NCBI GenBank assembly: GCA_020724845.1
Contig: DYGE01000004.1
Location: 29,751 to 93,750 of the forward strand
DNA from: Candidatus Paceibacter sp.
GTDB taxonomy: Bacteria; Patescibacteriota; Minisyncoccia; UBA6257; 02-FULL-45-10c
Direction of reading: 5' to 3'
DNA: 64,000 bases
Under the pieces are notes generated by a model, which saw only the letters and a list, made by a program, of their open reading frames with translations, searched no databases and was not told the DNA's origin. The position numbers were made by a program, and so were the translations under genes. Within the stretch, counting starts at the first letter, position 1; each line of letters begins with the position of its first letter. Below are positions 38,481 through 39,812 of this stretch, piece by piece.

Positions 38481-39812
38481 TCACTGGCTCTGCCCCTTCA
38501 AGAATTCCGCCAAGGTCTTTTCAGCCACAACCTCGCAGCGCCACTTTAGGTGGTCGCCAAGATCCGACGCGCTATCGCCGACCTTGCCTCCGAGGCCTTT
38601 CTCAACTTCTGAACGAAGGTCAATAGGCAGGGAAAAATGCGAACCAAGAAAATGCAGCTCTTCCGTCAATCTCTCTTGAAATTTCTTGACTAAAGTTTTC
38701 GCGGCTTTATCCCGGCCGCCTTTCTTCTTGGAGCGGCCGCCGCCAACCAGAAATTTCTCCGATAAGACAGCAACGAATTCCTTAAGATTCATATTAACCT
38801 TAAGCCACGGCAAGGTCAGCATTCTTTCCGGACAATCTTTGGATAACTTCTGCCATTTGCTCATACTGTTAACCTCCGGAATGCGCTTCTGGGCGTCGAC
38901 AATGAAGTAAGTAAGGACTCCTCCAAATTCGCTATCCCAAAACCAGCTAAGAAGCTTTTGATGCCACAAATGATCATTCAGGCTCAATGGAGGCATGCTC
39001 CCTCCAAGGCACCAGTGGTAGGGCCAATTAGAATTGATGTTCGGCAAATTAGGGAAATACAAAGCATCGCTTTCGCTCTTTAAGGACTCCGGTCTGTAGA
39101 AGGCCCAAAACCCCCAAAAGCCATCGTAGCCATCATGGTTCAAATGCAATAATTGGCCGTTTTCAAAACAAACCAAGAAGCAAAACCAGGGGAAAGCCAG
39201 GTGATACTTTATCGGGTGGCCAAAGCTAATGTTGACAGTGCGTTTCTGCGGCGGAAATTCAAGGCAAAAAACATCGTAAACACTTTCACCCTTCTTAATC
39301 CGCCAGTGGAACCTGGTATTCGGAGGCAGTGCGCCGGAAAAGATCACAGACTCTCCCGACTCCTGCTCCGATTTCCAGGATTTCGCGATCTCCTCAAATT
39401 GCTCCTCAAGGATTGTTTTCCAAACGCTAGCTCCGCGAGCGCCGAGCTTGGCGACAAGCTCCTTCCGGAAATTCCTTTCCCCAATCGTTATACATTCCTG
39501 CAGAAGCGGCTTCACTTCCTCGGTAAGCGAACCGAATTTCGGTAAAACATCCTTTTCAATCCAAGTTCGCATAGCGTGGTCGGAATGCTCCTTAAGCAAT
39601 AAACCAAGAGACTTCTCGGCCGATTGCGGAGACTTTTCCGCCACAAGCTTTTTGCTTGAGAGCGGAACCAAATTCGGCAGAAGACTGATCAGCGGACCGG
39701 TATCCAAACGGATTGTCCATCGATTGCCATCCGCGTCGAACAAGGGCTTTTCAACCAATTCAGCCGGCATCACAATACTGCGCTTAACCGACTCCTTCTC
39801 GCTGGCCATCAT
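38481..39812 (-). CDS. hypothetical protein, first gene of Ubl/E1/JAMM operon (candidate E2-like)
   Basis: 443 aa, Trp-rich, no confident family; segment …TVNISFGHPIKYHLAFPWFCFLVCF… loosely resembles the UBC HPN…C active-site arrangement. Confidence 0.45.
   Translation of the reverse strand: MMASEKESVKRSIVMPAELVEKPLFDADGNRWTIRLDTGPLISLLPNLVPLSSKKLVAEKSPQSAEKSLGLLLKEHSDHAMRTWIEKDVLPKFGSLTEEVKPLLQECITIGERNFRKELVAKLGARGASVWKTILEEQFEEIAKSWKSEQESGESVIFSGALPPNTRFHWRIKKGESVYDVFCLEFPPQKRTVNISFGHPIKYHLAFPWFCFLVCFENGQLLHLNHDGYDGFWGFWAFYRPESLKSESDALYFPNLPNINSNWPYHWCLGGSMPPLSLNDHLWHQKLLSWFWDSEFGGVLTYFIVDAQKRIPEVNSMSKWQKLSKDCPERMLTLPWLKVNMNLKEFVAVLSEKFLVGGGRSKKKGGRDKAAKTLVKKFQERLTEELHFLGSHFSLPIDLRSEVEKGLGGKVGDSASDLGDHLKWRCEVVAEKTLAEFLKGQSQ

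Follow-up and report, generated by a model that had tools for sequence, protein, structure and literature searches.

The 443-aa gene and its cassette

The sequence analysed here, referred to below as the window, is a 64,000-nucleotide stretch of contig DYGE01000004.1 (GenBank assembly GCA_020724845.1, Candidatus Paceibacter sp.; positions 29,751 to 93,750 of the forward strand). The element in question is a gene on its minus strand (38481..39812) that encodes a 443-aa protein and opens a transcription unit shared with genes for a JAB peptidase, an E1-like protein and a ubiquitin-like protein (Ubl). Judging from sequence comparisons, this protein probably serves as the Ubl-conjugating enzyme (E2) in an E2-like/JAB/E1/Ubl cassette of four genes, its middle third being a very divergent Prok-E2_D domain inserted between helical regions that are specific to a sub-clade labelled Patescibacteria or candidate phyla radiation (CPR). 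The open reading frame (ORF), first proposed in a preliminary description of the window, is real: it starts with ATG, ends within the given coordinates at a stop codon and heads the unit as described. Moreover, a homologue (P0002) with 44% identity across 99% of the length is encoded in a syntenic position on another contig (L001), where a JAB gene comes next and then a cut-off ORF matching the E1 profile.

Directly 5' of the E2-like gene lies a promoter-like site, TTGACA-17-TATAAT (39863..39891, minus strand), which agrees with the sigma-70 consensus at 12/12 positions; a strong hairpin (39894-39927) is found upstream of this site, and an AGGAGG ribosome-binding site precedes the ATG. The second gene (37160..38446, minus) codes for a 428-aa JAB/JAMM peptidase (Pfam Prok-JAB, 8.7e-7), and its stop is overlapped by the start of the third (36480..37160, minus), which codes for a 226-aa single-domain ThiF-type E1 (Pfam ThiF, 6e-16). 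A terminator-like hairpin (36449..36471, minus) immediately follows the E1 stop and separates it from the Ubl gene, which has a promoter-like site before it (TTGACT-17-TAATAT with TG; 36411..36439, minus) and may be transcribed separately from the enzymes, or at a higher level. The Ubl itself is an 83-aa protein (36109..36360, minus) with a weak match to ThiS and the C-terminus LEFKKPSGRKG-stop, and a second terminator-like hairpin directly 3' of its gene (36079..36096, minus) marks the end of the unit.

Two further ORFs on the same strand deserve mention. A 121-aa ORF in another frame (36047-36412) spans the whole Ubl gene and is probably spurious, since the conserved Ubl family is matched by the 83-aa frame only. 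A 158-aa ORF (35522..35998) was considered as a fifth component of the cassette and rejected; it has promoter-like and terminator-like sites of its own and no homologue in the 90 loci compared.

Family assignment and candidate active site

The preliminary description could assign no motif to the 443-aa protein, and scans against Pfam, NCBIfam, PADLOC and PHROGs likewise returned no match, while sequence searches of the PDB with the single protein, a full-length profile (coiled-coil noise only), a core-only profile and a PF14460 profile retrieved nothing relevant. The richness in tryptophan and phenylalanine that it had pointed out is moderate (W 3.6% and F 5.9% overall; 5.7% and 8.8% within the core, residues 155-348). 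Relatives were equally hard to reach by fast methods: a word-indexed protein search with the 443-aa query returned the protein itself and the 44%-identical P0002, and even a profile of 116 sequences gave only 2-3 relatives, so that an exhaustive search was needed. With HMMER and a two-sequence profile, such a search recovered 315 relatives, 72 of them at E<=1e-10, which share approximately residues 155-345 of the window protein.

Among the 87 relatives that were scanned, 24 matched PF14460 (Prok-E2_D; best 9.8e-10), and no other Pfam family was recurrent. Several short relatives encoded in loci collected through their E1 gene (see below) exceed the PF14460 gathering score of 25, namely those of L058 (31.9 bits), L052 (30.8 bits) and L062 (28.2 bits). 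The link was then examined profile against profile. An alignment of the window protein and its 19 closest relatives (A4) was compared by hhalign with 16 cyanobacterial PF14460 proteins (A6), seeded from an annotated gene on a Tolypothrix plasmid; the match has a probability of 96.2% (E 2.3e-9) over 122 columns and covers window residues 154-296. It pairs the window motif NLPN (255-258) with an invariant PLPN, Cys268 with the invariant cysteine of 'SICFG', and WFWDSEF with LFWxSPFNxD, and the signature of the family can be written as [N]LPN[IV]-x(5-10)-C...FWxSxF. The curated cut-off of PF14460/TIGR03737 is not reached by the window protein, yet we consider the assignment of a Prok-E2_D domain from these comparisons to be solid despite the failed thresholds.

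PF14460 corresponds to NCBIfam TIGR03737, 'PRTRC system protein B', and its members are named in the source records either in this way or as 'prokaryotic E2 ligase family D protein'. Since the Pfam family letters are those of the operon types defined by Iyer, Burroughs and Aravind (2006), PF14460 corresponds to type '6D', just as Prok-E2_C was equated with '6C' by Chambers et al. (PMC10557695). A 6D operon, as described, comprises genes for a Ubl, a JAB protein extended by a further domain at its N-terminus, an E1-like protein, an E2-like protein whose cysteine is conserved, and a helical protein (PMC1779556).

Conservation within the family was counted in 203 non-redundant members aligned to a hidden Markov model of the core (match spanning residues 156-348), and it separates the two peptides in which an active site had been sought. 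Both ISFGHPIKYHLAFPWFCFLVCF (residues 195-216) and NWPYHWCLGGS (residues 262-272) are present in the protein. The preliminary description had preferred the first, reading its GHP...FPWFC as a loose counterpart of the HPN-Cys site, but this did not hold: the column of His199 in GHP is variable (mostly gap, K, E or S), and Cys211 of FPWFC (39180..39182, minus), located in a predicted β-strand (209-217), is a cysteine in only 10/203 members and mostly V or I in the others. The second segment fared better, as its Cys268 (39009..39011, minus), the residue aligned to the invariant cysteine of PF14460, is retained in 199/203. The catalytic (thioester) cysteine is therefore likely to be Cys268 rather than that of FPWFC.

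Upstream of this cysteine lies the HPN-like motif of the family, N255-L-P-N258 (39039..39050, minus), which reads YFPNLPNI in the window protein and NLPN(I/V) in the family as a whole. Asn258 is kept in 171/203 members (84%) and Asn255 in 118/203; the motif differs from the true HPN of the UBC/E2 superfamily in having the asparagine and no histidine. Other well conserved positions are Pro208 (200 of the 203), Trp320 (199), Pro188 (198), Phe296 (194), Trp292 (186), Glu185 (179), Arg191 (176) and Asp249 (167). Conversely, His266, His281 and His284 are unconserved, columns 281 and 284 being mostly A/S and V/A, respectively. With no histidine conserved, a Cys-His hydrolase or transglutaminase becomes less likely, and a thioester carrier fits.

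Partner proteins, related loci and genomic setting

The partner genes point to the same stock. The JAB protein carries the motif HSHxxxxxxHSSxD and matches NCBIfam PRTRC_A (4.7e-12) over residues 23-169, a region that includes an N-terminal extra domain resembling JAB-N. Its C-terminal ~230 residues (37160-37850 in the window) form a Lys/Glu-rich low-complexity tail, because of which the protein is ~150-200 residues longer than most of its relatives; in the L001 orthologue the tail is shorter and unrelated in appearance. The E1 matches PRTRC_ThiF end to end (4e-8) and keeps the GxGGxG motif (GLGGIG) together with a conserved Cys170 within HPEIxxPxDxxPxELxC (alignment A7 of the E1 family). Both PRTRC matches are far below the respective cut-offs. 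The same order as in the window is found on the annotated Tolypothrix plasmid, where 'prokaryotic E2 ligase family D' is followed by Mov34/JAB and ThiF genes.

As for the Ubl, its family is defined by a C-terminal motif, LEF[VI][KR]xxGxKG, found at or near the protein end in >70 loci. In about half of the loci, including the window (...GRKG-stop), the protein stops exactly at KG, and in the remainder the KG is followed by a tail of 1-25 residues or by a fused domain. Such a mixture of tailed and untailed ends is classically seen where a peptidase matures its Ubl. The same motif recurs as ...AGTKG within a small protein of the Tolypothrix plasmid (L009:3591-4013), whose gene lies two genes upstream of that for E2_D.

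Scanning 185,579 species genomes with the E1 alignment A7 alone identified 108 relatives, from which 80 loci were kept; back-translated GTDB scans with the E2 alignments had yielded no relatives. Most of these loci are labelled Patescibacteria/CPR, and the others carry the labels Methylomirabilota (NC10), Lentisphaerota, Planctomycetota, Acidobacteriota and a few DPANN archaea. Every ORF of the loci was compared with profiles of the E2 core, JAB, E1 and Ubl, and an E2-like gene was detected beside JAB and E1 in 60 of the 62 loci that extend at least 2.5 kb upstream of E1. Of these orders, E2-JAB-E1-Ubl is shown by 39 loci, and 15 have Ubl-E2-JAB-E1. In two cases the Ubl and the E2 are fused (L078:3107-4237 and L079:2909-4087), GxKG being followed by a linker and then by the E2 core, and in another a Ubl domain forms the C-terminus of an AAA+ ATPase (L090:1161-3251) that ends in ...AGEKG|KPCR. 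In one locus, labelled Parcubacteria group bacterium (L011:137-5871), the cassette is duplicated in tandem (E2-JAB-E1-E2-JAB-E1). The proposal of the preliminary description that the window encodes a complete set of E1, E2, deubiquitinase and Ubl thus stands as far as family homology (96.2%; 24/87) and gene context (60/62) are concerned. It rests on what can be observed directly: the family homology, the conserved cysteine, the gene neighbourhood, the C-terminal glycine motif of the Ubl and the fusions.

In approximately 24 of the 80 loci, a gene for a 530-680-aa AAA+ ATPase lies immediately upstream of the cassette and in the same orientation (L027:1720-3495, L054:1465-3069, L074:796-2745, L083:870-2720 and L047:288-2054; further loci, about 20 in all, include L028-L033, L037, L048, L053, L065 and L070, as well as L075, L076, L078, L079 and L085). 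The ATPases from Acidobacteriota, Planctomycetota and Ignavibacteriota match NCBIfam pup_AAA, 'proteasome ATPase', over nearly their full length (3.5e-75, 9.9e-35 and 9.3e-26), all of these matches remaining below the cut-off; one of these proteins possesses the proteasomal OB domain (Pfam Prot_ATP_ID_OB_C), and the NC10 versions match PAN/CDC48 best. In the window, no AAA+ gene adjoins the cassette. The sister cassettes with AAA+ genes hint that bacteria may have a tag for unfolding or degradation that is driven by E1/E2.

These partners also bear on a different use of the same genes, a sulfur-carrier system of the ThiS/MoaD-CysO type in which a persulfide on Cys268 would turn the Ubl into a thiocarboxylate after its adenylation by E1, with no conjugation to proteins. 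The minimal, ThiF/MoeB-like E1 and the weak ThiS match of the Ubl would suit such a system, operons combining JAB, ThiS and E1 in sulfur metabolism are known (PMC1779556), and a rhodanese-like ORF (41693-41989) lies ~2 kb upstream. This ORF, however, is outside the unit and absent from the syntenic L001 locus, and no sulfur-metabolism genes recur beside the cassette in related loci. In addition, the Ubl ends in KG, as opposed to the GG typical of sulfur carriers, and the Ubl-E2 and AAA-Ubl fusions, along with the Mpa/PAN-like AAA+ neighbours of related loci, are better accommodated by protein tagging. We therefore regard a sulfur carrier as very improbable.

Viewed together, the loci invite a broader reading, which we put forward tentatively and consider rather doubtful as a whole: the cassette might represent a widespread, mostly chromosomal Ubl/E1/E2 tagging pathway derived from the 6D/PRTRC stock and present, by label, in Patescibacteria/CPR, NC10, Planctomycetota, Acidobacteriota, Lentisphaerota and a few DPANN archaea. 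In many lineages outside the CPR, the pathway would be coupled to AAA+ proteins related to Mpa/ARC and PAN, in an analogue of ubiquitin-dependent unfolding or degradation, and in the CPR branch, devoid of AAA+, the conserved coiled-coil arms acquired by the E2, joined in some genomes by a membrane anchor, would act as a built-in E3-like targeting module. The cassette of the window seems to belong to the CPR branch.

The window is chromosomal, as it includes bacterial 23S and 5S rRNA genes, eight tRNAs and housekeeping genes. Library scans of the window genes revealed no ParB near the unit, so that the linkage to ParB on plasmids or integrative and conjugative elements that characterises PRTRC is missing here. 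The neighbourhood of the cassette is of the housekeeping kind and partly syntenic with L001, which speaks for a resident role in the cell more than for a mobile defence island; in other genomes the cassette is found in differing contexts. On L001, in the corresponding interval (5372-5558), the E2-like gene comes directly after a gene with an MJ0711_N domain, whereas the window has an insertion of five ORFs between the two (40173-42257), coding for a 175-aa membrane protein, a 212-aa, a 107-aa, a 98-aa rhodanese-like and a 67-aa Cys-rich protein. A tRNA is located at 42369-42439. In the rRNA region (28448-31792), the 23S match is 3178 nt long against a model of 2925 positions, and the ~250 extra nt are therefore probably due to one or more insertions. 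The 5S gene follows the 23S and the 16S is absent from the window; unlinked rRNA arrangements of this type are common among candidate-phyla bacteria.

Predicted fold, mechanism and known systems

An AlphaFold (AF2) model of the 443-aa protein built with 116 sequences reached a mean predicted local distance difference test (pLDDT) score of 86.9, mostly >90 in the core, compared with a pLDDT of 38 when two sequences were supplied. Three regions can be distinguished, all on the minus strand. The N-terminal clade-specific region (residues 1-153; 39354..39812) is predicted to form a small β element (23-60) and a helix of ~86 residues (65-150); it is followed by the Prok-E2_D-type core (residues 154-348; 38769..39353) and by a C-terminal clade-specific helical hairpin (residues 349-443; 38484..38768) with helices at 364-391 and 397-442 and a conserved ERLEEELHFLG. 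The core is modelled as a β-meander (166-252), a long loop (253-282) that contains NLPN and Cys268, and helices (283-355). The predicted spacing is 10 residues from Asn to Cys and 15 from Cys to the next helix, the corresponding distances in UbcH5 being 8 and 14. Both this spacing and the order of the elements (helix, meander, Asn/Cys loop, helices) are compatible, in the model, with a UBC-type fold.

A number of results weigh against the E2 reading. The predicted sheet has ~8 strands instead of the canonical 4. In a Foldseek comparison of the AF2 model with the PDB nothing was significant, the best match (E 0.22) being unrelated, and neither UBC nor Atg3/10, Cap2, BilB or the Bub E2 is among the 50 matches listed. 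Three family alignments compared by hhalign with seven canonical E2s attained probabilities of only 4-18%, and a canonical UBC relationship was not significant by this route; a profile of the seven sequences retrieves PDB E2 chains at E ~1e-67, which confirms their behaviour as an E2 profile and no more. The window protein has no match in Pfam or NCBIfam even at E<=1 or 0.1, and a sequence search for a solved structure of a PF14460 member found none. The E2s of 6D operons were reported to possess an absolutely conserved histidine C-terminal to the cysteine (PMC1779556), and none is conserved after Cys268 in the 203 members; in A6, the set of cyanobacterial PF14460 proteins, this histidine varies as well. 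Furthermore, two Methylomirabilota loci (L037 and L048) have the order AAA-JAB-E1-Ubl and no detectable E2-like gene despite room upstream; they may represent an E2-less variant of the system. Finally, no experimental work on 6D, PRTRC or Prok-E2_D was found in the literature, and the name 'E2' consequently rests on the original bioinformatic assignment (PMC1779556).

These results could be taken to mean that the PF14460-type domain has another, cysteine-dependent or non-enzymatic fold unrelated to UBC, belonging for instance to a target, a receptor or a regulatory subunit that does no more than co-occur with E1, JAB and Ubl, and that 'E2 family D' is a historical misassignment. A confident model lacking a UBC-like match in the PDB, the weak profile scores, the enlarged sheet and the want of a solved structure or experiment for the family are what this explanation has in its favour. 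Nevertheless, we judge it improbable. The cysteine is kept in 98% of the members and lies in a loop, at a UBC-like distance from the conserved Asn that precedes it, the gene occupies the place of the E2 in a Bil-like order, and Ubl-E2 fusions occur as in Bub. Moreover, Iyer et al. obtained significant profile matches that span the cysteine (PMC1779556), and the top local match of each of our three hhalign runs, weak as these are, is anchored on the active-site loop, pairing LPNI...C with HPNI...C. Both checks advised in the preliminary description thus gave divided answers: structure prediction with Foldseek disclosed no confident alternative fold but no significant PDB match to the UBC fold either, and the sensitive profile search established homology to PF14460 (96.2%) while the relation to canonical E2s stayed weak. 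Foldseek also paired the model with three uncharacterised proteins of uncultured tailed phages in BFVD (A0A6J5P0Y8, A0A7R7G2H5 and A0A6J5MFC0; probability 1.0, E 2e-7 to 3e-6), implying that the domain occurs in phages too.

Conservation of the helical N- and C-terminal regions is confined to long E2-like forms from genomes labelled Patescibacteria/CPR, and we suggest that these arms mediate oligomerisation or target selection. The idea that they are a fused version of the α-helical protein of 6D operons was discarded: the Tolypothrix helical protein matched with a probability of 0.06%, and no similar separate ORF was present in the 90 loci. Some E2-like forms are still longer, reaching 690-790 aa (L005:6001-8235, encoding P0043, and L024, L025, L026, L029, L034, L038, L061 and L067), and carry an N-terminal extension of 300-450 aa. 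In P0043, several hydrophobic segments of the extension resemble transmembrane helices, which suggests a membrane-anchored E2.

Large non-catalytic helical extensions might also be expected of an inert E2 variant of the UEV/RWD kind, an adaptor that binds the Ubl or the E1 and recruits targets with its helical arms, direct transfer of the Ubl being left to the E1, and inactive E2-like domains were a feature of the 6E operons as first described (PMC1779556). Such domains typically lose their cysteine, however, whereas here Cys268 persists in 199/203 members together with the NLPN motif, and even the Cys-less E2s of Bub proved to be active through a serine (PMC11601596). Of the alternatives weighed, we deem this the least probable.

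For the E2 reading that we prefer, a mechanism can be proposed because the chemistry of E1 and E2 is established in eukaryotes, Bil and CBASS (the cyclic oligonucleotide-based antiphage signalling system). By analogy with these, the E1 would adenylate the C-terminal glycine of the 83-aa Ubl (...GRKG) and bind it as a thioester, probably on Cys170. Transthioesterification would then hand the Ubl to Cys268 of the E2-like protein, where the NLPN motif, 10 residues before the cysteine, may act as the counterpart of the HPN asparagine. The E2 would subsequently attach the Ubl to lysines of its targets with no separate E3 involved, the helical extensions possibly serving oligomerisation or target choice. 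The JAB peptidase, for its part, would trim the C-terminal tails in those relatives that have them and reverse the conjugation. What we infer from the sequences and their neighbourhoods is the thioester chemistry, a fold of the UBC type, the targets and the biological role.

Type II CBASS, Bil and Bub have all been solved since 2022, each with unexpected chemistry, while for the 6D/Prok-E2_D family, a prediction dating from 2006, we found no experimental work. A large branch of this family escapes Pfam, NCBIfam, PADLOC and PHROGs, and it resides on the chromosomes of small-genome bacteria of the candidate-phyla type, beside housekeeping genes and with an E2 that bears extra conserved helical domains. 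The present analysis supplies a concrete candidate active site (Cys268 and Asn258) and a minimal four-protein set, and the association of sister cassettes with a proteasomal-type AAA+ raises the question of whether bacteria possess an E1/E2-driven degradation tag besides Pup.

Compared with canonical UBC/E2 proteins (PF00179), the window protein shares an [HL]PN[IV]-x(4-10)-C loop that precedes a helix and is itself preceded by a helix and a β-meander, but it has no HPN histidine, a larger β-sheet and no significant profile or Foldseek similarity. With Type II CBASS (Cap2/Cap3) it has in common the logic of E1, E2 and JAB, and the window E1 gives weak matches to the PADLOC Cap2 'E1-E2' models (7e-7). 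Cap2, however, unites E1 and E2 in one protein and conjugates a cGAS-like enzyme, whereas here there is no CD-NTase and no fusion, and the Ubl is free. Bub (6E/DUF6527) is likewise a diverged bacterial E1/E2/Ubl set, and the fusions of L078 and L079 recall its Type I BubAB (PMC11601596). Its E1 and E2, though, lack catalytic cysteines and form oxyesters (PMC11601596), whereas E1 Cys170 and E2 Cys268 are conserved here; the peptidase in our case is a JAB protein, and a Pfam scan detected no DUF6527 in the window unit.

The antiphage Bil systems (Types I and II, BilABCD) are closer in composition, as they combine a Ubl, an E2, a JAB deubiquitinase and an E1 with no E3, in the order Ubl-E2-DUB-E1 that is found in 15 of our related loci (PMC10557695). 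Their Ubl also has a conserved glycine, with or without a C-terminal tail for removal by JAB (PMC10557695). Their E1, in contrast, is multidomain (BilD, IAD-AAD-CYS) and not a single 226-aa ThiF domain, and their E2 belongs to a different family, BilB having a cysteine with an adjacent histidine where no histidine is conserved here; the PADLOC Bil models did not match the E2, JAB or Ubl of the window, where neither CapH/CapP nor a defence-island context was seen.

It is among the 6D/PRTRC systems that the cassette finds its nearest kin. The kind is already known from bioinformatics (6D, Prok-E2_D, PRTRC), and the window version is a distinct variant of it. The E2-like protein falls below every curated threshold, is almost twice as large (443 aa vs ~230-270 aa) owing to its conserved helical N- and C-terminal regions, and is without the reported histidine after the cysteine. 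No separate α-helical partner gene was detected in the unit, which is chromosomal and situated near rRNA, tRNA and housekeeping genes rather than being a ParB-linked plasmid or integrative-element cassette, and the Ubl gene comes after E1, at the end of the unit and behind an apparent promoter of its own. What the two share is nonetheless extensive: a homologous core domain (hhalign 96%) with the signature PLPN-x-C...FWxSxFNxD, a JAB protein with JAB-N (PRTRC_A-like), a single-domain ThiF E1 (PRTRC_ThiF-like), a small Ubl with the motif ...AGxKG, and the gene order E2-JAB-E1.

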